A stretch of DNA of 64,000 bases from an uncultured Methanosarcinales archaeon (GCA_964581515.1 CAZOOV010000001.1:180823-244822), one strand, 5' to 3'; shown: positions 5,522 through 51,006, counted from the first letter of the stretch. Numbers and translations are program-made. The notes: generated by a model from the sequence alone, not told the origin.

Positions 5522-5753
5522 TTCGATAACCTCGTTTAGTGTTTTTTTAGTTGTAAAAGAAAAAAACAGTTGGTATTAAAGTCTAGAGAAATATAGCTGA
5601 CGCCAATGGCCATGAGTTGATTTGAAAATACTAAGATCTAGAAAGATTGAATAGCTACTGCCAGGCATAATCACATCTGTTTGTCATAGTTTTTGAGAAT
5701 AGGTTGAATTATATAAATGTTTCTGAACATTTGAGTAAAGATTTTTAAACATA

Positions 5754-7451
5754 ATGATATTATATTCGACTATGAATTATTTTGAAGAACTCATTGAGTG
5801 GATAAAAGAGAATAAGCCTGATAAGGATAAACTCGCTAAACAGAAGGTCAAGCTATGCAGAAAACATGGCAAAAAGGAAATTCCTACTGATATTGAGATA
5901 TATTTACAGGCCACCATATATGATGCTAAGAAAATAAGAAGATATGTAGAAACAAAACCAACAAGAACTGGAAGTGGTGTTGCAGTTGTTGCTGTAATGA
6001 CAAAGCCTGCAAAGTGCCCTCATGGCAAATGCATATTTTGCCCTGGTGGAGTAGAAAGCGAATTTGGTGATGTTCCTCAAAGCTATACAGGCAAAGAGCC
6101 TTCCACTATGAGAGGGATGAGAAATGATTATGATCCATACAGAATCGTATTTAATCGGTTAGAACAATATATAGTAATAGGACAGAACCCTGAAAAAGTA
6201 GACCAAATAATAATGGGTGGAACTTTTTGCTCAATGCCTAAAAAATATCAAGAAAATTTTATTCATCATTCATTCAAGGCATATAATGATTTTTCTGATA
6301 TGTTTTACATTAAAGGTAAGTTAGATCTTAAGAAGTTCAAAGAATTCTTCGAACTGCCAGGGAAAGTCAATGATAAGAAACGTAGCATAAGAATAAAGAA
6401 GAAAGTGTTAGCTCTTAAGAAGAAAAATAAAAAAAGCCTTTTTGAAGAGCAGAAAAGAAATGAGAAAAGTGCTATCCGGTGCATAGGAATCACTGTTGAG
6501 ACTAGACCAGATTGCGGTCTTGTTGAGGATGGTATCAGATTACTTAGTCTTGGAGTCACTAGAATAGAACTAGGAGTACAGACAGTATATGATGATGTAC
6601 TAAAGAAAGTCAATAGAGGTCATAATGTCAAAGATTCTAAAAGAAGCATTGCCGAACTCCGTGATTTAGGATTTAAACTAAATTTTCATATAATGCCAGG
6701 ACTTCCTGGAGTTAGCAAGAAAAAAGATATAGAAAATTTCAAGACTTTCTTCAGAAACAGCTGGTTCAAGCCAGATATGCTGAAGATATATCCTTGCATG
6801 GTTATGCCAGGGACTGAGCTGTATAAATGGTATAAGAAAGGTAAATTTAAACCACTCATTACAAAAGAAGCAGCTGAAATAATTGTTGAAGGTTTCAAAT
6901 ATATCCCTGAATGGTGCAGGGTTATGAGAGTGCAGAGAGATATTCCAACATATGTGACTTCTGCAGGCGTTGACAGGACAAACTTAAGACAATATGTGAA
7001 TGAACTTGCCAGAAAGAAGAAAGTTAAGATAAATGATATCAGGGCAAGAGAGATCAGAAAGGAGAAAGTAAAAGAAAAAGGAAAGATAAAAGTAATTGAA
7101 TATATTGCCAGTAACAGTAAAGAATACTTTATTAGTTGTGAAGCTGATGGAAAATTACTTGGTTTTTTGAGATTAAGGCATGTTGTCAGGTCATTGCACA
7201 GTGCCATAACACTCGATAGCGGAGTAATTAGGGAATTACATGTCTATGGAAGTGCTGTAGGTATAGGAAAAGAAGGAGATATTCAGCATAAAGGCGTTGG
7301 TAAAAGACTTATGAAAAAAGCTGAAGAAATATGTCTGAAAAAGAAAAAAGATAAGATGGTTGTCATTTCTGGAGTAGGTGCAAGAGATTATTACAGAAAA
7401 TTAGGATATAAAAAACAAGGACCTTATATGGTCAAGAAGTTGAGACTATAG
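5754..7451 (+). CDS. elp3: Elp3 radical SAM/GNAT tRNA U34 acetyltransferase
   Basis: CPHGKCIFCPGG, QSYTGKEP, ETRPD, RVQRDIP, RELHVYG, QHKGVG, ISGVGARDYYRKLGY. Confidence 0.96.
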   Translation: MILYSTMNYFEELIEWIKENKPDKDKLAKQKVKLCRKHGKKEIPTDIEIYLQATIYDAKKIRRYVETKPTRTGSGVAVVAVMTKPAKCPHGKCIFCPGGVESEFGDVPQSYTGKEPSTMRGMRNDYDPYRIVFNRLEQYIVIGQNPEKVDQIIMGGTFCSMPKKYQENFIHHSFKAYNDFSDMFYIKGKLDLKKFKEFFELPGKVNDKKRSIRIKKKVLALKKKNKKSLFEEQKRNEKSAIRCIGITVETRPDCGLVEDGIRLLSLGVTRIELGVQTVYDDVLKKVNRGHNVKDSKRSIAELRDLGFKLNFHIMPGLPGVSKKKDIENFKTFFRNSWFKPDMLKIYPCMVMPGTELYKWYKKGKFKPLITKEAAEIIVEGFKYIPEWCRVMRVQRDIPTYVTSAGVDRTNLRQYVNELARKKKVKINDIRAREIRKEKVKEKGKIKVIEYIASNSKEYFISCEADGKLLGFLRLRHVVRSLHSAITLDSGVIRELHVYGSAVGIGKEGDIQHKGVGKRLMKKAEEICLKKKKDKMVVISGVGARDYYRKLGYKKQGPYMVKKLRL

Positions 7452-24134: not shown

Positions 24135-26441
24135 TTAAATCATTTCAGCGCCAATAGATTTGTTTAATATGCTCATTGCAATAGTATTAAATATGAGTAT
24201 TACAATTGCTGTTAAGAGCGCGTAAAGAATAGTTGAGCGAAGAAGATTTCTTCCAACTAAATTCTCTTCAGTTAACTTATCATCACCATTAGATATTCCT
24301 GCAATTGTCTTTGAAATAATAAAAACTACTTGTACTATGTATAAACCAACTACTATCTGAAAAAAATAAGTAGGGATTCCATCACCAAACATACTTGTCA
24401 AGCCTTCCATACCACTTGCTTGCTCAGAACCCACCTCTATATTCTGAATAGAACTTGAAAGTGTACCAATAATATTAGTTATCATAGCAGTTATACCAAC
24501 AACAATACCAGAGATTACAGGAGCTAAGAATTTTATCAAAGAGTTCATAGAAGAGATTACTTCTCCAAGAAGATCCTTAAGCCTTTCTTCAACAGCATGC
24601 ATCTCTTTAACATATCTTGCAATATTACTCATCGCTTTAGCTGCAATCAATGGACCTTTCTTGATAGATTCTGTCAAAACCTTCATAGTAGAAAGTATTA
24701 ATGAAGAAGGAAAATATTGGATTGCTCCAATCTTCTCATCGAATATAGCCTGTTCAGGCGACATCCCTAGACGTCTGATATTTTGATCAATAATACCAAA
24801 GAATTTTCCTGATTTTGAATCCTGCATGACCTCCACTACTTTACTAAATGACATTTCCAAGGGGATTCCATCTCCCAACCTATTCCCAAGTTGGAATACT
24901 GCTGATCCAAACTCGTCTTCTAATTGTCTTGTCTGTTCACGTATTATTACAATATCTTTTGTTTTAAGAGTATAATATATGCCAACACCAACTCCAAAAG
25001 ACAGTATCAAACAAATACCCAAGAGAGTTGCAATAACACCATAAGGACCTTTATAGATTGGATTTCCATCTTCATCTGCTCCACCTTCACGATAATCAAG
25101 TACAGACATACCTGGTTCTCCTAAATCTACATTTCTCCCAATATAAATATCATTTCCATCTCCTAAAGCAAGATTTAAAATTAAAGGGGATACACCAAGT
25201 AAAAAAAGCGGGATTGCGACAAGTAATGCAGCAAATAAAGGAGTAAATTTGATTCCAAAATGTTTCTTATGTTTCTTCCTTTCCTCAATTACAAGAGGAT
25301 TATCCTCTGATATATCATTCCCACCATAACCTCCTGGCCGCTCTGATAAGATCTTTTTCCCAACAAAATAAACAGAGATAGGTATGACTACATTATATAA
25401 TATCGATAAATGATACCATCGAACACTTTCCATAAAACTTACTACGAGAGGAAGGATTACAAGACCAAGTATCGGAAGGATTACCCCAAGCATATGAAGC
25501 GTACTGATAGGAGATTGAATATCATGAGAATAATGGAGCATCTTCTCATATGTCTCTGAAAGAATCACATCAAGAGCCTTATCAAGTAGAGCTATACGAT
25601 TCTCTTCTTTTCCCTCATATAATGAGGATTCAATAAGATTAATACCTTCTAAGAATTCACTGTTTGTCTTTCTCCATTTTTCCATATAAACATCTAATGA
25701 TTCCTTTATAGTACCATATTTCTGGGATTCAACATCCCATAATACCTTCTTAAGTTCTACAGCAAGAGGACCAGAAAGATGATCACCTGCAAACTCAATT
25801 GCTTTCTCAAGATTTGAGTTCTGACGCATATATGTTACAATATAAAATACACAAATGACAATCTCTTTACTACTTTTCAACCGCCATATGCTAGCAAATA
25901 TGGCAGGAAGTTTTGTCAATGGAATCATAATACCAATTGCTGCTAATAAAAAGAATGAGATAAAGAAAAGATCACCATTCAAAAGAAATATAGATGTAAG
26001 AAGACCAACAACCATAAATATAATTGGGCCAATTATAGCAAAAGCAAAAGTATCTTCAGGTGTAATATTCATATGACAAGTATCAAGCGCTGCCTGTATC
26101 TCTGGCTTCATCTTCTCTCCTGGATTTATTTTTGCAATACTACCTGAAAATTGACATGCTTTCTCATATAAAGAATGCATTGCAGGCTTGTTTTCCTTCA
26201 GAAATTGCCTAAATTCAGGACTAGAGATAAACTGTTCATCAGAATCCATAAATTCTTCTGCTGTCTTCTTTTGTTCTATTAACTTGCCTTTCTTATCTTT
26301 CTTGCCTTTCTTGTCTTTCTTCTTTATTTTATCACTTATTTTCTTTTTCTCAGATATAATATCTTGCTCAATAGCGTTAGTACTACCTGCATCATATTTA
26401 CTCATTGCTTTTCTTATCTCTTCAGGTGATATTTTGTCCAT
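24135..26441 (-). CDS. Type IV pilus/Tad inner-membrane platform protein (two T2SSF-like halves)
   Basis: Multi-TM; NLEKAIEFAGDHLSGPLAVELKK and QLGNRLGDGIPLE halves; directly downstream of the ATPase. Confidence 0.85.
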   Translation of the reverse strand: MDKISPEEIRKAMSKYDAGSTNAIEQDIISEKKKISDKIKKKDKKGKKDKKGKLIEQKKTAEEFMDSDEQFISSPEFRQFLKENKPAMHSLYEKACQFSGSIAKINPGEKMKPEIQAALDTCHMNITPEDTFAFAIIGPIIFMVVGLLTSIFLLNGDLFFISFFLLAAIGIMIPLTKLPAIFASIWRLKSSKEIVICVFYIVTYMRQNSNLEKAIEFAGDHLSGPLAVELKKVLWDVESQKYGTIKESLDVYMEKWRKTNSEFLEGINLIESSLYEGKEENRIALLDKALDVILSETYEKMLHYSHDIQSPISTLHMLGVILPILGLVILPLVVSFMESVRWYHLSILYNVVIPISVYFVGKKILSERPGGYGGNDISEDNPLVIEERKKHKKHFGIKFTPLFAALLVAIPLFLLGVSPLILNLALGDGNDIYIGRNVDLGEPGMSVLDYREGGADEDGNPIYKGPYGVIATLLGICLILSFGVGVGIYYTLKTKDIVIIREQTRQLEDEFGSAVFQLGNRLGDGIPLEMSFSKVVEVMQDSKSGKFFGIIDQNIRRLGMSPEQAIFDEKIGAIQYFPSSLILSTMKVLTESIKKGPLIAAKAMSNIARYVKEMHAVEERLKDLLGEVISSMNSLIKFLAPVISGIVVGITAMITNIIGTLSSSIQNIEVGSEQASGMEGLTSMFGDGIPTYFFQIVVGLYIVQVVFIISKTIAGISNGDDKLTEENLVGRNLLRSTILYALLTAIVILIFNTIAMSILNKSIGAEMI

Positions 26442-26455
26442 TTTTATTTATTTTC

Positions 26456-28747
26456 TTATTTATTTATTCTTGAAAGATTATTCTTCTTAATCGTTTTCTT
26501 AAGCCATTCATTCCATTCATAGAAAATTCTTTTAGTATCAAGGGTACCTACTTCTTCTTTGACAGAATCACTGATTTTATGGAAAAAATCATTACATAAA
26601 ACTGTAAACTTAGCCTCTAACAAATCAGGATTCTTTACTTTTTCAGCCATATCTACTTGTGTCTGTTTAATTTTAGCTCTAAGTTCAATACTTTCCCAAA
26701 TAGCGTCCCAATTATTTGCATATTCTTTAATATTTGATGCTATTGTCTTTAATATCTCTGATTCACCATTCTTTAATTCTGCACTTACCTTCAACTCATC
26801 AGTCTTAGGGTCATATTTCATAAGATCAGTAAAGCCATGTTCAATCAATGGATCATTCACCCAATTCTTTCCCATCTCTGTTATCTGTGTGACTCTCCTA
26901 AACTTATGCAAGCCATCTGCACTTCTGATTGGATTTGCAACAATAATAACATCTGTAGCTTTGAAAGAAGTACTTGGAACACCTATATCATTGACAACAC
27001 GGTCATAAATACCATATGGACTATCACCATGAATAGTTCCTGCGACAGTATTTGCTGCTGCACCAACACGCATAGCTTCATACAAGGCTTTTGCCTCTTC
27101 ACTTCTTACTTCTCCTACAATCAAAGCTGAATCTCCTAACCTTAAAGTTGAACGAATACCATCTGACGCTGTCATCTCTGTAGTGTTCTTTGTCAAAGAT
27201 GATGCTACTTGAAGCGGCTGGATATTGAATCCTAATTTTCTCAAGTGAGGAGTAGGAAGTTCTAATGTATCTTCAATAGTAATAATACGATACTTCCTCA
27301 TTATATCAACAAGAACTGCAGAAAGCAAAGAAGATTTACCTGAACTTCTTGTTCCTGCTATCAACATAGTCCTTGTTCCGTCAATCAGAAAGGAAATAAG
27401 ACCTGCTGCAAATGAATTAATCATTTTTGCTTTTATGAAAAGTGGCAAAGTCCATGGTTTATCCCTATGACGCCTAAAAGAGAATGCTAGTCCTGTAGGA
27501 TCAAGTGGTCTAGTAACTGCCGATACACGAGTTGACGCTCCAGGTAACTCTAATTCTGTATCAAGGATGGGATTTGCTTCATCTAAAGGACGTCCTGACA
27601 TAAGACGTAGTTTTGTTGCCCAAGATTCTACCTCCCTTAATGTAGGGATTATGTTTGTTTTACAATCATCATAATCTTGATGAACGATAAACATAGGAAT
27701 AATTCCAGGAGGTGAGTTAATACTGATATCCTGAATTCTTTCATCAGAAAGAAGAACTTCTATCAATCCAAAACCGACAGTATATCTTACAAGAATTCTT
27801 GTAAGTTTTGCTACTTCTTTCTCAGTCATGGTCATATTCCTGTATGTTGCAAGCTCTTCTATGAGGTCATGACTGATATTGTAGAATACTTCTCTCATTC
27901 TTTCTGGATTTACAAACTCAGATTTTGTAGGTTTGTGTTCTGCCATGACTTGTCTGGCAATGTCAAGTATTTCATATTGTTCTTCATCCAGTTTAAATTC
28001 AGGAGGAAGAATATGGTAAAGATATTGTACAGTCTCAGGAACCTTGAAGACAGTAATCTCTATATCATCATCAACTGTGTAAGAATCTATCTCTTCACCA
28101 TCTAAAGGATAATCTGCCATAAGTTTAGTAAACATAAAGTCTGGTTTTATTGTTGGTGAGAAAATCCTTTGATATAAGTCTCTATTTCCTGGCTTAAAAC
28201 CTGAAAGAAAAGGCTGCACTATCACTATAAGTTTTGTCTTATCCATAAGAGATATAATATACTTCAAAAGCATGAAATATTTCTTATCATGTGGCGCTTG
28301 TGCATTTTGTTCATTATCTGCTGATTCTCTCCTATATATCCTCTTTAACATAACATATGCACTTACAGGATCTTCTTTAATCTTTCTGAATACAATATTT
28401 TGCAGTTCAATATACCTTTGACTGTAAAAAGTATTAAAACTAGCATCTTGAGAAGAAAGATTTGAGATCTGAAACAAATCCTTTTGCTTTAGAAGTTTCT
28501 TATATATCTGTGCTATCTCAACCAAAAGTTTAGTCTGTGCATAATCGTATTCATAATCTCTTTTTTGATAGAAAACAATCTTTGTCACATCACCTACATC
28601 AATAATAGCGTCCACCACTAGTGACATAGCCTCTTCATTATCTTCAACTGAAGGAATCTCACCATAAGTCTCATAATCAATCCTAAGAATTACATCTTCT
28701 GCTTCTCTGATTATTTCATATTTTTTCTTTTTTTCGAAGAGTGGCAT
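26456..28747 (-). CDS. Type II/IV secretion (CpaF/TadA/VirB11-like) ATPase
   Basis: AGTRSSGKSS, ITIEDTLEL, LIVGEVRSEEA, GTIHGDS. Confidence 0.93.
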   Translation of the reverse strand: MPLFEKKKKYEIIREAEDVILRIDYETYGEIPSVEDNEEAMSLVVDAIIDVGDVTKIVFYQKRDYEYDYAQTKLLVEIAQIYKKLLKQKDLFQISNLSSQDASFNTFYSQRYIELQNIVFRKIKEDPVSAYVMLKRIYRRESADNEQNAQAPHDKKYFMLLKYIISLMDKTKLIVIVQPFLSGFKPGNRDLYQRIFSPTIKPDFMFTKLMADYPLDGEEIDSYTVDDDIEITVFKVPETVQYLYHILPPEFKLDEEQYEILDIARQVMAEHKPTKSEFVNPERMREVFYNISHDLIEELATYRNMTMTEKEVAKLTRILVRYTVGFGLIEVLLSDERIQDISINSPPGIIPMFIVHQDYDDCKTNIIPTLREVESWATKLRLMSGRPLDEANPILDTELELPGASTRVSAVTRPLDPTGLAFSFRRHRDKPWTLPLFIKAKMINSFAAGLISFLIDGTRTMLIAGTRSSGKSSLLSAVLVDIMRKYRIITIEDTLELPTPHLRKLGFNIQPLQVASSLTKNTTEMTASDGIRSTLRLGDSALIVGEVRSEEAKALYEAMRVGAAANTVAGTIHGDSPYGIYDRVVNDIGVPSTSFKATDVIIVANPIRSADGLHKFRRVTQITEMGKNWVNDPLIEHGFTDLMKYDPKTDELKVSAELKNGESEILKTIASNIKEYANNWDAIWESIELRAKIKQTQVDMAEKVKNPDLLEAKFTVLCNDFFHKISDSVKEEVGTLDTKRIFYEWNEWLKKTIKKNNLSRINK

Positions 28748-35925: not shown

Positions 35926-36888
35926 ATGGGACTTTTCGGTAAAAAACAAGATAAGAATTCTGAACCTCCTTTACCAGATAATCTGCCGCCCCTTGACAGC
36001 GCTCCTCCAGTTGGCGCGCCAGGTTCTGTACCACCAATCCAACCTAACATTACAACTCATGATCAAATACCTAATGATATACAATTAAATCCACCTGTAC
36101 CAGATATGCCTCCACCTACACAACCAAGCATGGGTGAGCCATTGATTAATAATAATAGTTTTGCACCACATCCTGCACTTGGACCTGAACAAGGAATGAT
36201 GCAAAAGACGAAAGAACAAAAACTTCCAGAACCAAATATACCTAATCCAGATACATTCTCAGCAGGTGTTCCAGGAAATGTTGAAGCTCAAGAGCCAGAT
36301 AGTCTTCCAGATTTACCTGAGATAGACCATAGTAGTACTGAACTACCTGAGCTTCCAGACATAAAAGACATACCTAATCCAAGACCACAGAGTCAAAGCG
36401 CTGCACCAACCCAGATAGAAGAGCCAAGACCACAAGTAGATGATGAGGTCCCTACTCCACCACCAATATTCTCTGATGAGGAATTCTATGAAACACCTAA
36501 TGAAATAAGGCATCTTGTCAATGAGAAAAAGATTAAACATCATCATCATAAACCTAAACAATTATTTGCTGAAGAACATACTTATGTTCATGAAGACGTA
36601 GAAGATGATATACCAAAAGAAGCACCTGGAAAAGAAGGAGTAGAAGGAGGAATGGAGAATTACCATCAAAGACCAGGACCAATATTTATTAATATTGATG
36701 CTTTCAAAGGAATGCTGGGAGATATAGAAACTATTCAAAAGGACATTAAATCATCTGAGTTGATACTACAACATCTTCAGGAAATCAAAAATGCAAAAGA
36801 TATGGAACTTGAAAGATGGAGAGTACAACTTGAAAATATTCAAAAAAAAGTAACATATGTTGATAAAGTTTTATTCAATGAGGCATAA
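35926..36888 (+). CDS. Pro/acid-rich disordered protein with C-terminal helical hairpin
   Basis: MGLFGKK start, ~230 aa low-complexity region, His patch, C-terminal PIFINID...VDKVLF. Confidence 0.8.
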   Translation: MGLFGKKQDKNSEPPLPDNLPPLDSAPPVGAPGSVPPIQPNITTHDQIPNDIQLNPPVPDMPPPTQPSMGEPLINNNSFAPHPALGPEQGMMQKTKEQKLPEPNIPNPDTFSAGVPGNVEAQEPDSLPDLPEIDHSSTELPELPDIKDIPNPRPQSQSAAPTQIEEPRPQVDDEVPTPPPIFSDEEFYETPNEIRHLVNEKKIKHHHHKPKQLFAEEHTYVHEDVEDDIPKEAPGKEGVEGGMENYHQRPGPIFINIDAFKGMLGDIETIQKDIKSSELILQHLQEIKNAKDMELERWRVQLENIQKKVTYVDKVLFNEA

Positions 36889-36890
36889 AA

Positions 36891-37106
36891 ATGGAAGGAA
36901 AATCACTATACGTTAAAGTTGATGATTACAAAGATATCGTTGATATCATGACTTTGATTAAGAAAAAGATCCAGGATGCAAAAGGCATCTTAAACTCAAT
37001 CAATAATCTGAAGAACGATGAAGATATAGAAATAGATGAGTGGAATAATAATATTGAAGAGATTGATAGAAAAATAGATGACCTAGATAGGGCATTATTC
37101 GAGTAA
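36891..37106 (+). CDS. Stand-alone helical-hairpin protein, paralogue of the previous C-terminus
   Basis: LYVKVDDYK...EDIEIDEW...LDRALFE. Confidence 0.8.
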   Translation: MEGKSLYVKVDDYKDIVDIMTLIKKKIQDAKGILNSINNLKNDEDIEIDEWNNNIEEIDRKIDDLDRALFE

Positions 37107-37586: not shown

Positions 37587-37985
37587 TTATTTCTTTAGAA
37601 GACTTCTACATCCATTATATGTTGTTTTTAGAATATTGTAAGGAATTTCAAGTGCATATGTTCCCATTAAAGTAGGTTCTTTTTCTCTTAAGTCAGGAAA
37701 CCTTGCAAAACCATCAACCATCATGGCTGCAAATGTAGTTCTAGCTTCAGGAGATTGAGAATATATCATTCCAATAAAACCAGCAGTAAGTTCTAAAGCA
37801 GAACTGAAATAAACTGATTCAGCTGCTTCATAATTAGGTATTATTTTTTCTAATTTCTTTTGTTCAGGTAAAAGAGAGACCACTGTATCAATCACTAAAG
37901 CGCATACTCCTGCTGTTAAACCAAATGTTATGTAAGAAGCGTCTAAAAATTTATCAGCGATACTTGTTTTTGTTACTGCATCCAT
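37587..37985 (-). CDS. Hypothetical membrane protein
   Basis: Start moved to MDAVTK because the track start lies inside the repeat array. Confidence 0.6.
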   Translation of the reverse strand: MDAVTKTSIADKFLDASYITFGLTAGVCALVIDTVVSLLPEQKKLEKIIPNYEAAESVYFSSALELTAGFIGMIYSQSPEARTTFAAMMVDGFARFPDLREKEPTLMGTYALEIPYNILKTTYNGCRSLLKK

Positions 37986-38089
37986 AACAGATATAATTTT
38001 AATTGATGTTTTAAAGATTTGTTTCTTTGAGAATATAAGAAAAAATGATTTAGATGTAAGAATTATGTAGAAAAAAAGTGTGAGGGAGG

Positions 38090-38240
38090 ACAATCTCACT
38101 AACGTTCTTTGCATAGTACTAATGTACTATACAATCTCACTAACGTTCCAGGCCTAGTACTATGTACTAGACAATCTCACTAACGTTCTTTGCATAGTAC
38201 TAATGTACTATACAATCTCACTAACGTTCCAAGCCCTCCC
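38090..38240. repeat. Tandem hairpin repeat array downstream of tRNA-Leu
   Basis: ACAATCTCACTAACGTTC x4 at 38090, 38131, 38171, 38212 with alternating 23/22-nt hairpin spacers. Confidence 0.95.
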
Positions 38241-38288: not shown

Positions 38289-38422
38289 TGTGAGGGAGGG
38301 GATTCGAACCCCCGAACCCACTAAAGGACAGGATGCCTCAAACGCTGAAAGTCATTGTGTTTTCACACTCTTAACTCAATTTCTTGAGTCCTGCGCGTTT
38401 GACCAGACTTCGCTACCCTCAC
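38289..38422 (-). tRNA. tRNA-Leu(CAA) with 48-nt intron at 37/38 (38335-38382)
   Basis: Acceptor GTGAGGG/CCCTCAC, A73, CAGGA-CTCAAG^A-TCCTG, long variable arm, GGTTCGAATCC; BHB central helix CTCA/TGAG. Confidence 0.95.
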
Positions 38423-38468: not shown

Positions 38469-38867
38469 TTACTGCTCATGCTTGTGTAAGAAGAAGGCTA
38501 TACCAAAGATTATGGTAACAGCAATAAGTACTGAGAAAAGTTCAATATTAAAATTATTATTTGGATGATTTAGTGGACTTTCAATATCTGGACGTCTTAA
38601 ATCAAGTTCCATATCATTCATAGGTATTGTAACAGAATAAATGCTTTCGCAATTATTTTCAGATTCACATACGCCCTGTCCGTTCTTCTCACAACAAATT
38701 TGATTTATACAATCTGAATCAGCTGTGCAAGATATATAGCAGTCTCCATCGATACATGTCATTGTATCTTTAATGACGTTTCCGGTTAATGAAGATCCTA
38801 AAAAGAATAAAAGAGCAGATAATGATATTATAAAAGTTACAGTGAATATTGTGTCATTTTTATCCAT
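38469..38867 (-). CDS. Cys-rich membrane-anchored surface protein
   Basis: N-terminal TM followed by LTGNVI, eight-Cys domain, C-terminal TM. Confidence 0.75.
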   Translation of the reverse strand: MDKNDTIFTVTFIISLSALLFFLGSSLTGNVIKDTMTCIDGDCYISCTADSDCINQICCEKNGQGVCESENNCESIYSVTIPMNDMELDLRRPDIESPLNHPNNNFNIELFSVLIAVTIIFGIAFFLHKHEQ

Positions 38868-39006: not shown

Positions 39007-40134
39007 TTAGTTTTTTGGTTGTGTTGCTTGCAAGGCTTTGAAAATACCAGCTTGTTCAGCGAACTCATTCATGTCACCGACCATAAGCTGATTTCCAGCA
39101 GCACCAGTACTGTATGGAAGCATCTTGATCTCTTTACCTTGTAAAGATCTGATCATTTCCATCTTAACTAGTGTGTCTCCACCTTCACTTGCCATAGCTT
39201 CTCTTAACTTGGTAATAGTTTCTGCTTGGTTTTTACCTTCTGTTAAAATAGCATCTGCAAGGTTGCTTTGCTCAGTGTAATAAGCATCTGCATCGATAAC
39301 TGCCCTATTATATTCACCATCAGCTAATTTCTCTTGCTCATTTTGATAAGCAATAGCCTGGTTAAGGAGCATTGCATTCTTCTCTGTTTGAGAAGCATAC
39401 TTATTATCAAGCTGTTTTGTTGTCTCTTCTGCAAGCTTTTTAAGTTCAATCTCTGAACTATATCTATCGTCAAACCTATAGTCTTTCGGAGATACTGCAA
39501 CAACCTTAACACCAAATTCTTCATTTAGTATTTCATTAAGGTATGTTTTTGCCTTTTCTGCTGCTTGCTCTCTTTGAGTCGCATCATAGAACTGCTGTGT
39601 TTCAAGCACTCCAAATGCATCTCTTGATCTTGCTCTTGCAATCCCTCTTACAACCTTATTCTTAAGCTCGTCCATATCTTCAGCAACAAACTGCCTGATA
39701 TAAGGTGCTTTATCTGGAATGATCTGATAAGAGACAATTAAGTCCAGATTGATAGGGTTACCATCTTTTGTAAAGAATTCAAGTTCGTCATTACCAACTC
39801 TATCTCCTTTGCCTGCTTCACCTGTCATCTCGACAACCTGAAGTTTTGTGTCAAATGTATCCCATGTATTGACAAAAGGCAAGAACATATATGTTGAACC
39901 TGGTTGATAAGCCTCTGCATCTACTCCTTTCTTGAATCCAAGTTTTCTTGTCCTAACTCCAACTTCATTTGTTCCTGTTCTGTGGAATGATCCAAGTCCG
40001 AGAACAACTGCTGCTAGACCAGCAACACCAACTAATCCAAGATTACCTACGCTATTTAATACTCTACCCATAGCTCCTTTGTCTACCTGAGGTCTTGGAT
40101 TTGAATTTGGACTATATCTACTTCTTCTACTCAT
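39007..40134 (-). CDS. SPFH (band 7, HflK/C-like) protein 2
   Basis: N-terminal TM, EVGVRT, FLPFVNTWDTFD, TKDGNPINLDLIVSYQI, coiled-coil tail. Confidence 0.9.
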   Translation of the reverse strand: MSRRSRYSPNSNPRPQVDKGAMGRVLNSVGNLGLVGVAGLAAVVLGLGSFHRTGTNEVGVRTRKLGFKKGVDAEAYQPGSTYMFLPFVNTWDTFDTKLQVVEMTGEAGKGDRVGNDELEFFTKDGNPINLDLIVSYQIIPDKAPYIRQFVAEDMDELKNKVVRGIARARSRDAFGVLETQQFYDATQREQAAEKAKTYLNEILNEEFGVKVVAVSPKDYRFDDRYSSEIELKKLAEETTKQLDNKYASQTEKNAMLLNQAIAYQNEQEKLADGEYNRAVIDADAYYTEQSNLADAILTEGKNQAETITKLREAMASEGGDTLVKMEMIRSLQGKEIKMLPYSTGAAGNQLMVGDMNEFAEQAGIFKALQATQPKN

Positions 40135-41183
40135 TTGCCATCACCTCCTTCTACAGCTGAAGACTCAATTGATTTCATGATAGCCTCCAATGCAGTGAAC
40201 TGATCCACTGGCAAATATATTGTGTCAATATTTTTAAATAGCTTTGCGCCTTCAAGACCAACAATCATGTCTGAACCTTCTCCTTCATAAGCTTCATTTA
40301 CTAGTCTCTTGCTTTCAGCTTCTGCAAGCTTTACAAGTTTGTCAGCATCTGATGTCTTCTTCCTAGCATATGCTTCTTGTTCTGAATGCTTGACTTGCTT
40401 ATATGCATCTCCTTCTCTTTTCTTTGAAAGAGCTGCTTCTGTTCCTTCTTTAACAAGACCAGAAAGTTTAGCTTGTGATGCTTCTCTATCTGATTCTGCA
40501 GTGTTTCTAAGCTTAACTTGTGTCTCTACAATCTTATCAAGCATCTTTGTCCTGATTTTTGGATGGTAAGTAACTTTCCTAATCTGGATATGGCTTACTT
40601 CCATTCCTGATTCAGCCAATCTTGAATTAAGCAAAGTTCTTGCTTCCTCAGCTTTTTCTATTCTTTCCTCAACATTATAGAAATCCTTTGGCTGAAGCTT
40701 TCCAAGAGTATCTTTTAGTGCTGGTTCTCCTCTTGGAACAATACCATTCTCTTCGTAAAGTTTGCCAGCTCCGATACTTGTTATTGTCTTTTTAGGATCT
40801 GTAACCCTATAAAAGATTGAAATGTCTAAGTCAACATAAAAACCATCTGATGTCTGGATGTGTGCTGCTCTCTCATTTCTCATATATCTTCTGTCATCCT
40901 TTGTAGGTTCTGTAACTGCATAATTTAGAACCTGTACATCTTTAGGAAACCTGTGCAGTTTCTGAAGTCCTGGAACAATAAAGTGTTTTCCAGTGTCATA
41001 AGTCTTATCTTCGGGTCCGGCTTTTATACCTTCCCTACCCAATATACCAAACGGCGAGAAAGTTGTCTGTTTTACAGCCAACTCATCCTGCTTAACAAAT
41101 GGCATAGCTAAGTTGTATGCCGCTAAAAAAAGAGCGCTTCCACCGACTACAGCAGCCTTTATTGCGCCTCCATATTTAACCAT
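40131..41183 (-). CDS. SPFH (band 7, HflK/C-like) protein 1
   Basis: N-terminal TM, IQTSDGFYVDLDISIFYRVTDP, alanine-rich coiled coil; ATGA-coupled to protein 2. Confidence 0.9.
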   Translation of the reverse strand: MVKYGGAIKAAVVGGSALFLAAYNLAMPFVKQDELAVKQTTFSPFGILGREGIKAGPEDKTYDTGKHFIVPGLQKLHRFPKDVQVLNYAVTEPTKDDRRYMRNERAAHIQTSDGFYVDLDISIFYRVTDPKKTITSIGAGKLYEENGIVPRGEPALKDTLGKLQPKDFYNVEERIEKAEEARTLLNSRLAESGMEVSHIQIRKVTYHPKIRTKMLDKIVETQVKLRNTAESDREASQAKLSGLVKEGTEAALSKKREGDAYKQVKHSEQEAYARKKTSDADKLVKLAEAESKRLVNEAYEGEGSDMIVGLEGAKLFKNIDTIYLPVDQFTALEAIMKSIESSAVEGGDGK

Positions 41184-41444
41184 TTTATCAGTCCTCCATT
41201 TATGGATCTATTTTTTTATTTTTGTTGCAGAAGTATACTGTTGAAATTAAGACAAGTTATAATTTACATTATCATTAACTTCTCAGCGCATAGCAAACAG
41301 ACCAACTTGTGACTCAAACATGTTTGCTATATCTGCAACTTCTAAAATCAGATTGGCATTAGCCTAAACTGAAGTATCACCTCTTCAGCCCTCGGTCTTT
41401 TCCGCCTACCTTAAGAAACCCAAGCCTTACTAGATGAAATATCC

Positions 41445-41466
41445 AAAGTGTTTAAAAACCTTTCGG
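41445..41466. promoter_or_regulatory. Candidate bidirectional TATA region
   Basis: + strand AAAGTGTTTAAAAA; - strand GAAAGGTTTTTAAA. Confidence 0.4.
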
Positions 41467-41485
41467 TGAGTACCACTCTGAAGAA

Positions 41486-43006
41486 GTGACAAAAAGAGAA
41501 GGTTTAAAAAGAGGCCAAGGATTGTATCAAGTCATGAGTACAGCACCACCATTCGGACCTTCTGGAAATGATTCTAGCAGTGAAGATGCAAGCAATGAAG
41601 ATGTAATCAAATACATGAAAATACTTGATGTTGCTGCAGCACTAAAAGAGCAGCATGATGAGCTTGGAAAAAGGCTTAGCGATGATGATTCTAAGGCAGA
41701 TTTAAGAAAGAGACTTCAAGGATGGGACACAAAAACAGGTACAGAAACAGATGTTGCCCTTATGGAAACTGCTATTGCTGATTATTTCTCAAATGCTTTT
41801 GAGTTTAAAGGAATTGAAGACCCAAAACAAGAAAGACTTGCAGACATGTATATCAATAGAGGAAAAATTATCAAAAAAAAAATATTACCAATCACAATTG
41901 CTGGTCTTATTGCACTCAGTGGTTGGGGACTTATCTCTGGAGCTAGAAAAGCTAGCATTAGATCTGAAGAGAGAAAAGTTGAAGAGAAAGTTGAACAAAC
42001 ATATGGATTAAAACAGACTCTTGAAAGACAACTTAGTGAAGTAGAAAGAGAATCAGACAATACATTAGTACTTGAGCTTGCTAAAGATGCAAGAACTGTA
42101 CTTAATGATACAGATAATTTCTTTCATACATATTGTAGAAATGGAGATGCAAAAGATAATGTCACAGTTGATAATTATAAAGATGTTGAGGCTAATATTG
42201 AAGATATAACAACTACATTAAGAAGCTCTAAACTAATTGCTGATAAGACAAGTAGCATGGTCAGAGGAATGAGAGAACTTGAAAGTGCTAAAAGAACACT
42301 TGACTCAAGAATAAATAATATTGATGCTTCAAAATATACTGCAAACATGAAAGAAAAAGCACGTGGCATGTATACATCAATGGTTAATGCTGCAAATGAA
42401 GGAGATATTGAAAGTGCACAAGCACAAAACAAACAACTTAGCGCATATTTACAAGATATAAAAACATTCTCAGCGTTAATACCTCAAACACAAAGAGCTT
42501 ATGCATCACTTAAGAGAACAGCTGTTGAAGATATTGCAAAACAAAGAACTGAGAGTTTATATGAGGGTGCAAAAACTCAAATGGAAACTGCTGATGTTGC
42601 AAGACTTAGAGGAAGTGCTGCTGCACTTGACGCTCTTGATAACTTAGTTGGAAGTGCATATAAACTCAGAATTGTTAGCAGACCTGGCGAAAAGAGTGGT
42701 GTATGGAGACAATATGGCACACGAGGAAATCAAAATGTCTCAGGATATTATATTGTAGTTGAAGCAATAGGAAATAATGGAAGAGTAATACCTATGAATA
42801 TAACAAACGAAGAGACAGGCAGAACTGAGAAAGTTACAAAATGGGGAGAGCGTGTAGCTAAATCAGTATACGAGGGAGTAGGAAGAGATAAACAGGATGA
42901 TGGAATTATTCAGAAAAATATAGTAGGAGAAAAAGAAATAGGTTATCTGACAACTAGATTCACTATGAAAGGTGTTGATGGTAAAGCACAGATAACTAGA
43001 TGGTAG
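41486..43006 (+). CDS. DUF6384-like membrane-anchored protein
   Basis: LADMYINRG + TM; C-terminal YKLRIVSRPGEKSGVWR, YYIVVEAI, EETGRTEKVTKWG, DKQDDGIIQ match my recollection of bacterial DUF6384. Confidence 0.8.
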   Translation: MTKREGLKRGQGLYQVMSTAPPFGPSGNDSSSEDASNEDVIKYMKILDVAAALKEQHDELGKRLSDDDSKADLRKRLQGWDTKTGTETDVALMETAIADYFSNAFEFKGIEDPKQERLADMYINRGKIIKKKILPITIAGLIALSGWGLISGARKASIRSEERKVEEKVEQTYGLKQTLERQLSEVERESDNTLVLELAKDARTVLNDTDNFFHTYCRNGDAKDNVTVDNYKDVEANIEDITTTLRSSKLIADKTSSMVRGMRELESAKRTLDSRINNIDASKYTANMKEKARGMYTSMVNAANEGDIESAQAQNKQLSAYLQDIKTFSALIPQTQRAYASLKRTAVEDIAKQRTESLYEGAKTQMETADVARLRGSAAALDALDNLVGSAYKLRIVSRPGEKSGVWRQYGTRGNQNVSGYYIVVEAIGNNGRVIPMNITNEETGRTEKVTKWGERVAKSVYEGVGRDKQDDGIIQKNIVGEKEIGYLTTRFTMKGVDGKAQITRW

Positions 43007-43018
43007 GATTATAAAAAA

Positions 43019-44458
43019 ATGGTCAGCGGAAGCAGAGTAGAAAGAGAAATCAATGATAAGATATCTAGTCTTCAAGATAAATACAGAACTCTTACAAGAA
43101 GAGCTGACAGATGTGAAGATAGAGTTATCAGCCTATCACATGAACGTGAAGGATTATATGCACAATTGGCTGTAAAATATCTTCCTGAAATGGATTCAGA
43201 TTCAGTTCAAAAGACACTCAAAGAAGTAAGAGGAGAAGTTGAACAATTATTTGAACAGAAAAAAGGTCGGCAAAAACAACTTGAAAAAACTCTACTTGAT
43301 CTAGATCAAAGCAAGATCAGTCTACAATTAGAACTAGATAAAATAACAATACAATTAGAAGGAAAAGTAAGAGAGCGTGACAAGCTTATGCAGTCTGTTG
43401 ACATGAGATTACTTGAACATACAGAGTATAAAGATCTAGGAGACAAAGCAGAACAAGCTAAAGAGTTAATTGCACAAGAAGATAGACGTGCAAAGACATA
43501 TGAAGAATTCACTGCACCTAGGCTTGTTGATTTCAGACAAGACAAAAGATTCTCTTATCTTATGAAAAGAAAATTTGGTACAGATAATTACAAAGGAAAA
43601 GGACTAAGCGCAAGGTTTGATAACTGGCTTGCTGAAGTTGTAGATTATACTGCACAAAAAGAAGACTATGATCTTCAAAAAGGAATACCTGACCATATAG
43701 CACATGAAAAAGCCATTAGACAAGACGCACTTGAAGATGTTGTTGGTAAAATGGAAGCTATTGAGAATAGAGAATCTCAAGATATAGGTCTTGTTGATGT
43801 AATAAAAGAAGGAAAAGAGATTGGGCAGAAAAGAGAAGAGATGATGAGTCAGATAGAAGAAATAGACAGCAAATATAAGAGATTATATGGGGAAAAGAAA
43901 GAACTTGCAACAAACAAAGGATTTTATTATAAAAACGCTGTCAAAAGACTTAAAACTTATCTAAAAGGAAGCAAACTTGCTACATTAAGAAGAACTGCAC
44001 TTGCTAGTCCAGACCCAGAAGATGATGTAATTGTTGAAAGGATTGAGACAATCAATGCAGGAATAAGCCAAATAAAAAGAAAATCAAAACATGCACAATC
44101 ACAAGCAGATGATGTAGAAGATCAACTTGATGGACTCAAAGACATCAGAAGAAAATTCAGAAGAAAGGATTATGAATCAAGAAGATCATACTTCCCAGGC
44201 GGTTTTGATATGGACTCGCTCCTTACAGGATATCTGGTAGGAACATATAACAGCAGGCAATTATGGAATAAGATTGATAGAGGTCAACGTTTCAAGCCAA
44301 AGCAAACTTATAGAAGTTCAAATTATAATTCATATAGAAGCACAAGCAGAAGATCATCACCAACAATCTCAATGCCATCTATATCAGTATCAACACCTTC
44401 TTTTAGTACAGGTGGAAGCATAAGCAGTTCCAGTTTCTCAACTGGTGGTGGGTTCTAA
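43019..44458 (+). CDS. Long coiled-coil protein with Ser/Gly tail ending FSTGGGF
   Basis: Heptad-rich; central FSYLMKRKFGTDNY...RFDNWLAEVVDY...IP; low-complexity tail. Confidence 0.85.
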   Translation: MVSGSRVEREINDKISSLQDKYRTLTRRADRCEDRVISLSHEREGLYAQLAVKYLPEMDSDSVQKTLKEVRGEVEQLFEQKKGRQKQLEKTLLDLDQSKISLQLELDKITIQLEGKVRERDKLMQSVDMRLLEHTEYKDLGDKAEQAKELIAQEDRRAKTYEEFTAPRLVDFRQDKRFSYLMKRKFGTDNYKGKGLSARFDNWLAEVVDYTAQKEDYDLQKGIPDHIAHEKAIRQDALEDVVGKMEAIENRESQDIGLVDVIKEGKEIGQKREEMMSQIEEIDSKYKRLYGEKKELATNKGFYYKNAVKRLKTYLKGSKLATLRRTALASPDPEDDVIVERIETINAGISQIKRKSKHAQSQADDVEDQLDGLKDIRRKFRRKDYESRRSYFPGGFDMDSLLTGYLVGTYNSRQLWNKIDRGQRFKPKQTYRSSNYNSYRSTSRRSSPTISMPSISVSTPSFSTGGSISSSSFSTGGGF

Positions 44459-48344: not shown

Positions 48345-48352
48345 TTTAGAAA

Positions 48353-48739
48353 ATGACAACCCAAAGAAATACCACGCAAAAAATAAAAATTTTGGAATTT
48401 TTAAGGAGTGTAAAGACACATCCTTCAGCTGAAGATGTATATAAGGCTGTAAAGGAGGATTTGCCCACTATAAGTCTGGGGACGGTTTATAGGAATCTAA
48501 ATCTTCTTGCAGAACAAGGAGAAATATTAAAACTGGAACTTGGGGGAGAATTTCGTTTTGATGGAGATATATGCCATCATGTGCATTACATATGTCAAGA
48601 ATGTGGAATAATAGTTGATGAATCCAATGGCCCACTATCAAAAATAGTGATGGACAAAATAAAATCAAAATCATTTAAACCTAAGTGTGTGAATATTTTA
48701 GTTAAAGGTTATTGCAAAGAATGCAAAGGAGGAAAATAA
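48353..48739 (+). CDS. Fur/PerR family transcriptional repressor
   Basis: THPSAEDVY, ISLGTVYRNL, HHVHYICQECG, GYCKEC. Confidence 0.93.
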   Translation: MTTQRNTTQKIKILEFLRSVKTHPSAEDVYKAVKEDLPTISLGTVYRNLNLLAEQGEILKLELGGEFRFDGDICHHVHYICQECGIIVDESNGPLSKIVMDKIKSKSFKPKCVNILVKGYCKECKGGK

Positions 48740-48740
48740 G

Positions 48741-49286
48741 ATGAGTACAACAGAAGAAAATCTCAAAGCAGCTTTCGCTGGAGAAAGCCAAGCAAGAAAC
48801 AAATATACATATTTTGCTAAGGTGGCAAGAAAAGAAGGTTATCATTACATTGCAAGATTATTTGAAGAAACTGCTGAAAATGAAAGACAGCATGCAAAAG
48901 ATGAATTCAAGCTTCTAGGGGGTATAGGAGATACAAAAGCAAACCTAAAAGCTGCTATGGAAGGAGAAAACTATGAAGTTACAGAAATGTATCCTACTTT
49001 TGCCAAAGAAGCTGAAGAAGAAGGCAATAAAGAAGCAGCCTTACTATTTACACAAATAGCTAAAGCTGAAGAAGCACATGAGAAAAGATACAAAAAATTA
49101 CTTCAAATGGTAGAAGACGGCACAGTATTCAAGAAAAAAAAACCAATTAAATGGAAGTGTGGAAAATGTGGGAGAATTGTTGAAGGTACTGAAGCACCTG
49201 AAAAATGCCCAACATGTAAGCATCCACAATCTTATTTTGAACCTGAATGCTTATGTTTTGAAGAAGATTGTGAAATTTGCAATTAA
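48741..49286 (+). CDS. rbr: Rubrerythrin
   Basis: AFAGESQARNKY, ENERQHA, GENYE, WKCGKCG...CPTCKHP. Confidence 0.95.
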   Translation: MSTTEENLKAAFAGESQARNKYTYFAKVARKEGYHYIARLFEETAENERQHAKDEFKLLGGIGDTKANLKAAMEGENYEVTEMYPTFAKEAEEEGNKEAALLFTQIAKAEEAHEKRYKKLLQMVEDGTVFKKKKPIKWKCGKCGRIVEGTEAPEKCPTCKHPQSYFEPECLCFEEDCEICN

Positions 49287-49306
49287 ATTAACCGAGGGGA
49301 ATTTTA

Positions 49307-49768
49307 ATGAATGAAAAATTGAAGATAATACTTGACAACGCAATTAAAGAAGAACAATATTTTCATGAGTTTTACAAAGCATTAGCAGAAAAAGCAAATG
49401 AACCTGCAGTGAAAAAAGAGCTCCTTAAATTATCTGAACAAGAACTGATTCATAAAGAAAAACTAAGGAGCCTAAACTTTGAAAGAATAGGTGATAAGAT
49501 AATTGCTGATGCAATAGATGAATTTGATATAGAGGAAGAAATTGCATTAAATCCTATTGAAGAATTTAGAAATATCAAAGAGATGTTGGAATTTGCAATA
49601 AAACAAGAAGTATTAGCAAAAGTGACATATCTTAAGATGGCAAAGACGATAAATGATGATGAAGCCATGAATATATTTGAAATGTTGGCTGAAGAAGAGA
49701 AGAAACATGAATTATTATTGACAGGCAAACTTGCTTTACTTGAACAGCAAGGAGCTGTAGATTGGTAA
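49307..49768 (+). CDS. Ferritin-like (rubrerythrin-type diiron) protein
   Basis: Duplicated AIKxE...ExxH motifs. Confidence 0.85.
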   Translation: MNEKLKIILDNAIKEEQYFHEFYKALAEKANEPAVKKELLKLSEQELIHKEKLRSLNFERIGDKIIADAIDEFDIEEEIALNPIEEFRNIKEMLEFAIKQEVLAKVTYLKMAKTINDDEAMNIFEMLAEEEKKHELLLTGKLALLEQQGAVDW

Positions 49769-49783
49769 AAGGAGGGAATAAGA

Positions 49784-50311
49784 ATGGCTATTTCAAAAAA
49801 GATGCAAGATGCAATAAATTTACAAATAAATGCAGAGATGTACTCAGCTTATCTTTATCTAGCAATGTCTGCAAACTTTGAAAACAGTAACTTAACAGGA
49901 TTTGCAAACTGGATGAAAGTACAAGCACAAGAAGAGATGGTACATGCAATGAAATTTTATACCCATTTAGTAGAAAGAGGAGGAAAGGTAATACTTGGTG
50001 CAATAGACAAACCACCAAAAGAATGGAAAAGCCCATTAGCAGTATTTGAAGAGGCATATAAGCATGAACAAAAAGTAACAACACTAATCCATAATCTAGT
50101 TGACCTATCAACAAAGGAAAAAGATCACGCTGCAAATAGTATGTTACAGTGGTTTGTAGATGAACAAGTAGAAGAAGAAGCTTCTGCAGATGCAGTTGTA
50201 CAGAAATTAAAGATTGCAAAAGATGCACCAGGAGCTATCTTCATGATAGACCAAGAGTTAGGAACAAGAGTATTTGTTCCACAGCCAGCAGATGGTGGTG
50301 GTGCTCAATAA
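49784..50311 (+). CDS. ftn: Non-heme ferritin
   Basis: QINAEMYSAYLYLAM, EEMVHAMKF, LQWFVDEQVEEE. Confidence 0.93.
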   Translation: MAISKKMQDAINLQINAEMYSAYLYLAMSANFENSNLTGFANWMKVQAQEEMVHAMKFYTHLVERGGKVILGAIDKPPKEWKSPLAVFEEAYKHEQKVTTLIHNLVDLSTKEKDHAANSMLQWFVDEQVEEEASADAVVQKLKIAKDAPGAIFMIDQELGTRVFVPQPADGGGAQ

Positions 50312-50394
50312 ATCAAGAGAGGTGAAGGGAGATGGCTAAATACGAGAAATTGAAAATTTCTGGACTTAGTCATTTTTAATAAAAGGTGATAAAA

Positions 50395-50562
50395 ATGACT
50401 AAGTTCAAATGTATACCATGTGATTATGTTTATGATGAAGAAACAGGGGACCCTGATAATGGAGTAGAAGCAGGAACTAAATTTGCTGATATCCCTGATA
50501 CATGGGTCTGTCCAGTATGTGGAGTAGGAAAAGACCAATTCGAAGAAATAAAAGAAGAATAA
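50395..50562 (+). CDS. Rubredoxin
   Basis: Not in the track; [55 protein letters not shown]; GGTGA RBS. Confidence 0.95.
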
Positions 50563-50622
50563 TTAACAACTAGTAAAAAAATAATAGATTGAGATTATAA
50601 TCAATTATTGGAGGTATTAAAA

Positions 50623-51006
50623 ATGGCAGAGGAAAATGGAATCTACAAATGTGAAGTATGTGGAAATATAGTATCTGTTATTGAAGCACATGATGGAACA
50701 TTAGTATGTTGTGGACAAGAGATGAAAATCTTAGAAGAAAAAGCAATTGAACAAGAAGGTAATGAAAAACATGTACCTATCATCGAAACAAGTGAAGGTA
50801 AAGTCAAAGTAAGTGTTGGATCAGTACCACACCCTATGGAAGAAGATCACTGGATAGAACTAATTCAACTCCTGAAAGATGGAAAAGTAATAGCAGAAAA
50901 GAAACTATCTCCAGGGGACACACCAGTAGCAGAGTTCTGTGTCTCAAATACAGAAGGAATTAGTGCTAGAGAAATATGCAATAAACATGGGCTCTGGAAA
51001 AGTTAA
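50623..51006 (+). CDS. dfx: Desulfoferrodoxin (2Fe superoxide reductase)
   Basis: YKCEVCGN, LVCCG, EKHVP, HPMEEDHWI, CNKHGLW; start after GGAGGT RBS. Confidence 0.94.
   Translation: MAEENGIYKCEVCGNIVSVIEAHDGTLVCCGQEMKILEEKAIEQEGNEKHVPIIETSEGKVKVSVGSVPHPMEEDHWIELIQLLKDGKVIAEKKLSPGDTPVAEFCVSNTEGISAREICNKHGLWKS

Follow-up and report, generated by a model that had tools for sequence, protein, structure and literature searches.

An SPFH gene pair beside the DUF6384 and Ccc genes of a three-gene membrane cassette in an uncultured Methanosarcinales archaeon

We analysed a window of 64,000 nucleotides on a 612,951-bp metagenome scaffold of an uncultured Methanosarcinales archaeon (GCA_964581515.1, CAZOOV010000001.1:180823-244822; positions are counted from the first letter of the window), in which two gene pairs are transcribed away from each other. 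On the minus strand lie SPFH_B (39007-40134), encoding 375 amino acids (aa), and SPFH_A (40131-41183), encoding 350 aa; on the plus strand lie the gene for a 506-aa DUF6384 protein (41486-43006) and that for a 479-aa coiled-coil protein, here called Ccc (43019-44458). The 302 bp between the two pairs (41184-41485) contain AT-rich, TATA-like stretches recognised by eye about 30 nt upstream of both starts. Since the gene order of the block was the same in four independent assemblies, an assembly artefact is excluded. A table of open reading frames (ORFs), Pfam matches and hydrophobic segments confirmed the four ORFs, domains and transmembrane (TM) anchors described in a sequence-only reading of this DNA, including its coupled SPFH genes facing away from DUF6384, and the proposed membrane anchoring fits the three of the four proteins that have a TM segment. 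That reading had also proposed that the four genes make up a single four-component system. We found that DUF6384 and Ccc are members of a cassette with another gene, A390, which is missing at this locus, and that the SPFH pair lies in its usual position.

The cassette was defined by surveying 165 DUF6384 loci, drawn from species-representative genomes (80 loci), a protein index (5 loci) and metagenomes (80 loci), with all their ORFs searched with profiles of A390, DUF6384, Ccc and SPFH proteins; neighbourhood counts are of raw loci, related lineages included. We took as a cassette a DUF6384 gene followed by a same-strand Ccc gene whose product ends in F-x-T/S-G-G-x-F, plus an adjoining A390 gene. 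The three genes occurred together in 84 of 85 loci and in a further 69 of the 80 metagenome loci. All 12 loci without the full trio were cut by contig ends, such that each of the 153 informative loci carries A390. More than 550 species representatives of bacteria and archaea, spread over many bacterial phyla and the DPANN archaea, carry the trio, and clustering of all flanking ORFs revealed no fourth conserved neighbour. Bacterial loci have the three genes co-directional and often overlapping, with A390 upstream, while in all DPANN loci (L001, L004, L006, L007, L087-L089 and L104-L107) A390 is divergent from DUF6384 and Ccc.

The window departs from this arrangement in one respect. Its Ccc gene begins 12 nt 3' of DUF6384 on the same strand and its product ends in FSTGGGF, as in the cassette, but no A390 adjoins DUF6384, making this the only DUF6384 locus with flanking room that lacks it; the SPFH pair occupies the usual divergent position of A390. 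Profile searches found no A390 anywhere in the 64-kb window, and the only tblastn match at E<=10 (27658-27807, E=0.003) was dismissed as a hidden A390, being a spurious match inside the ORF of a T2SSE/FlaI-type ATPase. Nor did tblastn with three A390 proteins (E<=10) reveal a trace of an A390 pseudogene in the intergenic region. Separately, we observed a lone A390 in a Planctomycetota metagenome-assembled genome (MAG; L086, 7001-8191), 59% identical to that of the DPANN locus L001, whose surrounding 7 kb hold neither DUF6384 nor Ccc in the Planctomycetota sequence; A390 thus also occurs away from the genes that normally accompany it.

The two gene pairs of the window were not found together elsewhere. 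None of the 165 other DUF6384 loci had SPFH genes by profile search within 5-8 kb, and none of five loci with an orthologous SPFH A/B pair had DUF6384: three of these (L090-L092) lacked DUF6384, A390 and Ccc in profile searches, and two (L184 and L185) lacked DUF6384 in precomputed Pfam annotation, which covers DUF6384 only. With no co-occurrence from either side, the four-component hypothesis fails by the test that the sequence-only reading had set for it. The suggestion that the locus holds an undescribed protein system survives for the DUF6384 module, whose third gene is A390, and does not extend to the SPFH pair as a part of it. The expectation that both pairs would be conserved, mostly bacterial and uncharacterised was borne out.

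The DUF6384 protein matches PF19911 over its full length, including the C-terminal beta domain, in two stretches with an insert between them (E=4.6e-56; 190.6 bits against a cut-off of 25), and it keeps 20 of the 20 invariant columns in an alignment with 27 homologues (alignment A1). A cytoplasmic helical N-domain (aa ~38-123) is followed by one TM segment (aa 133-151, nt 41882-41938), then an extracytoplasmic helical insert of ~190 aa (~157-345, nt 41954-42520), and finally the conserved beta domain (aa ~390-506, nt 42653-43003). The insert makes this the DPANN long form, compared to bacterial forms of ~310 aa. An AlphaFold2 (AF2) model with a mean predicted local distance difference test (pLDDT) score of 82 has helices up to aa 389, the insert as long helices, and beta structure at aa 392-503; the helical insert of ~200 aa that had been read from the DNA is thus present in both alignment and model. 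Lysine and arginine counts in the family (4.06 vs 2.29) indicate, by the positive-inside rule, an N-in/C-out orientation (60 proteins vs 6), and the protein accordingly crosses the membrane once with its N-terminus inside. We found no PDB sequence match for it, and Foldseek comparison of the model with the PDB gave none at E<=1e-3. In BFVD, the sole significant viral match of the model was the 440-aa G4KKD0, the same length as g191 of the Yersinia jumbo phage phiR1-37. The nearest DUF6384 loci are in Nanoarchaeia-type MAGs, which, together with the genes downstream of the block, point to a DPANN-type archaeon as the host. The window protein is 32-34% identical to DPANN copies, towards the lower limit of the identities found among DPANN archaea (30-57%).

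Bitopic tethers of the cytoskeleton or of signalling, such as RodZ and anti-sigma factors, share with DUF6384 an architecture in which a single TM segment separates a conserved cytoplasmic helical N-domain from an extracytoplasmic part, made up of a variable linker and a conserved beta domain at the C-terminus. One DUF6384 member is even labelled 'anti-sigma-K factor RskA' at JGI. However, the likeness is one of architecture only, as DUF6384 has no sequence or fold similarity to these proteins and no linked sigma factor or MreB.

Ccc belongs to none of the Pfam or NCBIfam families, lacks a TM segment and is soluble. A conserved non-coiled block occupies its centre (aa ~170-260, nt 43526-43798), and its tail (aa ~430-479, nt 44306-44455) is disordered and rich in Ser and Gly; the 479-aa coiled coil ending in SSSSFSTGGGF that the sequence-only reading described was confirmed. 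The tip of the family is F-x-T-G-G-G-F, and its C-terminal pentapeptide TGGGF follows a Gly/Ser-rich tail in 54 of ~80 homologues; in the window the tail is richer in Ser than in Gly, as in the phage copy. The family comprises 1032 cluster representatives (50% identity, E<=1e-3), all of ~400-560 aa. Over its full length, the window Ccc is 30-37% identical to DPANN copies, at the low end of a 30-52% range, and every invariant family column is present (alignment A3). Given that both DUF6384 and Ccc fall within the DPANN identity range and keep all invariant columns, the two copies are intact.

Searches for known relatives of Ccc returned no match of the window protein to PspA_IM30 or Snf7 at E<=10; both families were also outside the 25 most-matched families of 27 Ccc members, and Ccc had no PDB sequence match. 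By analogy, Ccc resembles intermediate-filament-like proteins with glycine-rich tails, such as keratins and bacterial coiled-coil-rich proteins, in that its long coiled-coil rod leads into a low-complexity tail of Gly, Ser and Phe, and its profile yields weak keratin, SMC and coiled-coil matches. All of these are insignificant (E>=0.003), however, and the conserved non-coiled block and fixed FxTGGGF tip have no counterpart in those proteins.

A390 is a soluble, all-helical protein of ~390 aa without a Pfam family. It is more conserved than DUF6384 and Ccc, with a mean column identity of 64% and many invariant polar residues in the alignment; identities are 53-73% among DPANN copies, 58-60% between DPANN and Planctomycetota, ~43% with Proteobacteria and 37-40% with the phage copy. 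No signal peptide or TM segment was found in 79 of 80 members. Lacking a hydrophobic segment, A390 and Ccc are both cytoplasmic. The A390 model consists of a hairpin of ~75-83-residue helices, one further long helix and a small tip made of two helices (tip pLDDT <50), and had no Foldseek match in the PDB at E<=1e-3. Its top neighbours, at E-values of 0.01-0.6, were ClyA-family toxins (XaxA, Hbl-B, AhlB, SmhB and MakE) and the cytoplasmic domains of chemoreceptors, which likewise have a long antiparallel helical bundle.

Several identities for A390 were considered and rejected. First, a ClyA-type pore-forming toxin was set aside, the resemblance being insignificant and the hydrophobic head absent. 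Second, a TelA/KlaB-like protein, suggested by the ~390-aa helical product encoded beside a membrane protein, was rejected, with no TelA among the matches listed for 28 members (Pfam, E<=10). Third, a di-iron or ferritin-like protein was rejected on finding one weak Phenol_Hydrox match and no conserved ExxH pairs in the alignment. Fourth, A390 and Ccc are unrelated and not paralogues (hhalign probability 2.8%). Lastly, the database names 'cell surface protein' and 'merozoite surface protein 3b' were judged uninformative for a protein with no signal peptide or TM segment in nearly all members. Weak apolipophorin-III-like Pfam matches were seen in 15 of the 28 members.

The cassette as a whole also stands apart from catalogued systems. 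The three families had no match among NCBIfam, PADLOC or PHROGs models (for PHROGs with the phage copies included) and no PDB sequence match. With PADLOC 2.0, the four window proteins gave none at E<=0.01, and the bacterial trio gave only an LmuB-like coiled-coil match (0.11). The literature searched held no mention of DUF6384/PF19911 and nothing useful on phiR1-37 g190-g192 or on the plasmid annotation name. As far as these comparisons reach, there appears to be nothing CHARACTERISED resembling the A390-DUF6384-Ccc cassette, and we describe it as previously undescribed in the sense that no relationship to a described system is detectable, which does not imply a new mechanism.

The SPFH pair has the layout of the SPFH superfamily, with an N-terminal membrane anchor, an SPFH domain and a C-terminal helical region. 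SPFH_A contains one hydrophobic N-terminal segment (TM at aa 12-30, nt 41094-41150), a Band_7 domain (aa 46-232) and a weak Flotillin helical match (aa 268-308); SPFH_B contains a basic N-terminal tail, a TM segment (aa 32-50, nt 39985-40041) and a Band_7 domain (aa 53-244) ahead of its helical region. Hidden Markov model searches upheld the Band_7 (PF01145) assignment, as they did that of DUF6384, with E=2.3e-21 for SPFH_B and 1.3e-22 for SPFH_A and scores across the pair of 77.1 and 81.1 bits against a gathering cut-off of 23.6. The genes overlap by 4 nt (ATGA), which makes their translational coupling plausible.

The two proteins, 25% identical to each other, are the A-type and B-type members of a conserved pair. 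SPFH_A is 43-44% and SPFH_B 45-47% identical to the first and second pair genes, respectively, of L090-L092. The best relatives of SPFH_A, 44% identical, are from Pacearchaeota, followed by Desulfobacterota and other bacteria, and they always lie within an overlapping A-type/B-type pair. At some of these loci, an upstream gene overlaps the start of the pair (L090 3523-4338; L091 5076-6008), encoding 271-310 aa without annotation; between L090 and L091 the products share 40% identity, with mid-protein hydrophobic stretches recognised by eye. L184 has an overlapping upstream gene of similar size (5160-6017, 285 aa). This gene, perhaps the third member of such an SPFH module, is absent from the window. 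A literature search on SPFH proteins in DPANN returned nothing relevant. On the other side of the window pair, directly downstream of SPFH_B, we observed a 132-aa ORF (38469-38867, minus strand) with two TM segments around a Cys-rich stretch, CIDGDCYISCTADSDCINQICCEKNGQGVC, and no Pfam match; this ORF and the SPFH pair could share a transcript.

Among characterised systems, the closest parallel to the pair is HflK/HflC and other heteromeric SPFH pairs. Here too, two paralogous SPFH genes are neighbours, each product is anchored by one N-terminal TM segment ahead of its Band_7 domain and ends in a helical region, and one of them, SPFH_B, bears a basic cytoplasmic N-tail; databases call relatives 'regulator of protease activity HflC'. 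Nevertheless, SPFH_B scored only 31.1 bits (1.5e-7) against the hflK equivalog TIGR01933, far below its cut-off of 159.4, and SPFH_A did not match it. Neither protein had a PDB sequence match at E<=1e-3, no FtsH was found among annotated genes within +-10 kb and no NfeD partner nearby, and some orthologous pairs have the unannotated 271-310-aa gene upstream instead. In itself, the SPFH pair is ordinary.

As regards mobility, we found the trio on 11 plasmids, among them Pseudomonas aeruginosa IncP megaplasmids, whose A390 bears the wrong name 'merozoite surface protein 3b', and beside an integrase on four IMG/VR contigs. The jumbo phage phiR1-37 holds the whole cassette as g190-g191-g192 (L094 5968-9799), complete with a dedicated promoter and terminators in the annotation; the Ccc-like g192 has the same Ser/Gly tail in extreme poly-Ser form and falls below the threshold of the Ccc profile. 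The recurrent flanking neighbours in bacteria were DUF533 (YebE-like, 9 loci), BON+LysM (8 loci), MscS (5 loci), an ABC-F ATPase and CoxG, and dynamin-family genes were among the immediate neighbours at 2 loci (Pfam scan). These provide a weak link between the cassette and envelope or osmotic stress. Pfam annotation of 132 immediate bacterial neighbours showed no enrichment of defence or mobile-element genes, and no defence-island setting in bacteria was seen in this set.

At the locus itself, the block adjoins a tRNA gene (38289-38422, minus strand; Rfam RF00005, 44.3 bits) that ARAGORN missed at default settings and Rfam detected. Its long variable arm and CAA anticodon identify it as the tRNA-Leu that the sequence-only reading had placed beside the block, and a 51-nt intron interrupts its anticodon loop. 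Integration usually takes place 3' of a tRNA gene, but the block lies 5' of this one; no second copy of the tRNA 3' end exists in the window, the block has no flanking direct repeats, and no integrase lies within +-10 kb. The four genes have a GC content of 0.35-0.39 and a third-position GC content (GC3) of 0.17-0.27, compared to host means of 0.338+-0.03 and 0.229+-0.04 (51 window genes), with the SPFH genes ~1.6 standard deviations high in GC and normal in GC3. A tRNA-targeted island was rejected on the single 3' end, the lack of repeats and integrase, and a composition within the host range. The lateral acquisition inferred in the sequence-only reading holds only as old sharing across domains and mobile elements and not as a recent insertion: both modules have certainly been transferred between domains, but not recently here.

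Other features of the window lie outside the block. Between an ORF at 37587-38114 and the 3' end of the tRNA-Leu gene, two 66-nt direct repeats (38089-38154 and 38170-38235) are 98% identical and 81 nt apart, each holding the 18-mer ACAATCTCACTAACGTTC twice. A 320-aa Pro-rich protein (35926-36888, plus strand) and the adjoining 71-aa protein (36891-37106, plus strand), both without a Pfam family, resemble each other in their C-terminal coiled-coil domains, which are ~65 aa long and 28% identical (E=1e-11). At 24135-28747 on the minus strand, a 763-aa T2SSE/FlaI-type ATPase is followed downstream by a 768-aa polytopic membrane protein, which together look like a pilus or archaellum assembly pair. 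Downstream of the block, Pfam identified Nudix, RNase J and PCNA genes, and 3' of PCNA comes a tight oxidative-stress cluster (~48350-51000, plus strand; L100 16868-19521) of FUR, two rubrerythrins, ferritin, rubredoxin and desulfoferrodoxin.

The explanation we favour, with a probability of roughly 55%, is that two independent, self-contained membrane modules lie head to head: the SPFH pair and a mobile three-gene cassette, of which the copy here is incomplete. SPFH_A and SPFH_B make an HflK/HflC-like heteromeric pair of A/B paralogues and, by analogy with SPFH assemblies of solved structure, would form a membrane-anchored oligomeric ring or cage. In the cassette, the cytoplasmic N-domain of DUF6384 would tether a helical scaffold of Ccc and A390 to the membrane, its beta domain would report on or bind something outside the cell, and the Ccc tip probably docks on a partner. 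With low confidence, we suggest a role for the cassette in membrane or envelope stabilisation, maintenance or stress sensing, including osmotic stress. The juxtaposition of SPFH with DUF6384 and Ccc could then be the outcome of a rearrangement or deletion, or reflect loose clustering of membrane-stress genes, rather than a purpose-built machine of four parts, and A390 may be encoded elsewhere on the 613-kb scaffold.

Several points weigh against this explanation. The proposed function depends on topology and a weak neighbourhood signal, and no component has an experimentally studied relative. Stress-type neighbours occur in ~10% of loci, maybe from few related lineages. The invariant polar residues of A390 suggest an enzyme or specific binder better than a passive scaffold. 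The absence of A390 applies to the locus and the 64-kb window, not to the genome, and the SPFH pair sits exactly at the A390 position, as a functional replacement would also predict.

Of the alternatives, the one that survives best, possible although unlikely, is that the full trio is present in this archaeon with A390 more than 20-40 kb away, the SPFH adjacency being irrelevant. DUF6384 and Ccc look fully functional from their sequences, A390 does occur alone in the Planctomycetota MAG, and the window covers 64 kb of a 613-kb scaffold. Yet A390 is adjacent in every informative locus (153/153), and among the best 120 of 1150 A390 homologues none was traced to the scaffold of the window, which is weak evidence.

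We consider it rather unlikely that the cassette serves mobile elements as a conflict system, acting at the membrane in anti-phage defence, abortive infection or superinfection exclusion. Its carriage by megaplasmids, a jumbo phage and integrase-flanked regions would fit such a role, as would its patchy cross-domain distribution and the presence near DPANN copies of ParE/VapB toxin-antitoxin, DUF3800, nucleotidyltransferase and DNA methylase genes. Set against this are the lack of a PADLOC match, of enrichment among the 132 bacterial neighbours, and of any nuclease, NTPase or other effector domain, as well as a conservation of A390 far above that usual for defence genes.

A functional replacement of A390 by the SPFH pair appears doubtful to us. 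Here the A/B cage would cooperate with DUF6384 and Ccc and might, for instance, enclose the long DUF6384 stalk outside the cytoplasm, and the cassette, seen as a mobile trans-membrane machine that joins a cytoplasmic helical lattice to an external sensor domain, would have been rewired in this archaeon, a broader proposal that we hold to be improbable as well. It would account for an SPFH pair in exactly the divergent slot that A390 holds in all DPANN loci, for DUF6384 and Ccc being intact without a neighbouring A390, and for the missing upstream gene of L090 and L091; judging from its basic N-tail, SPFH_B may have an HflK-like topology, which would place the SPFH domain outside, on the side of the DUF6384 ectodomain. 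However, the arrangement is a single occurrence (0/165 DUF6384 loci, 0/5 SPFH-pair loci), A390 is a cytoplasmic all-helical protein with no similarity to an SPFH protein, and the two modules are divergently transcribed from putative separate promoters. Finally, that DUF6384 and Ccc are non-functional leftovers decaying after the loss of A390 is very improbable, for although A390 is absent from the window and the Ccc tail is Ser-rich instead of Gly-rich, both frames are full length with all invariant residues and the FSTGGGF tip, their divergence is within the normal DPANN range, the phage Ccc copy has a similar Ser-rich tail, and the proteins are identical across the four assemblies.

The interest of the locus lies in the cassette, a strictly linked three-gene unit found with a single architecture in bacteria, DPANN archaea, megaplasmids and a Yersinia jumbo phage. 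Methylorubrum extorquens AM1, Pseudomonas plasmids and phage phiR1-37 are tractable carriers of it. The window is the one natural variant without A390 beside DUF6384 and Ccc, and as such a test of whether A390 is dispensable or replaceable.

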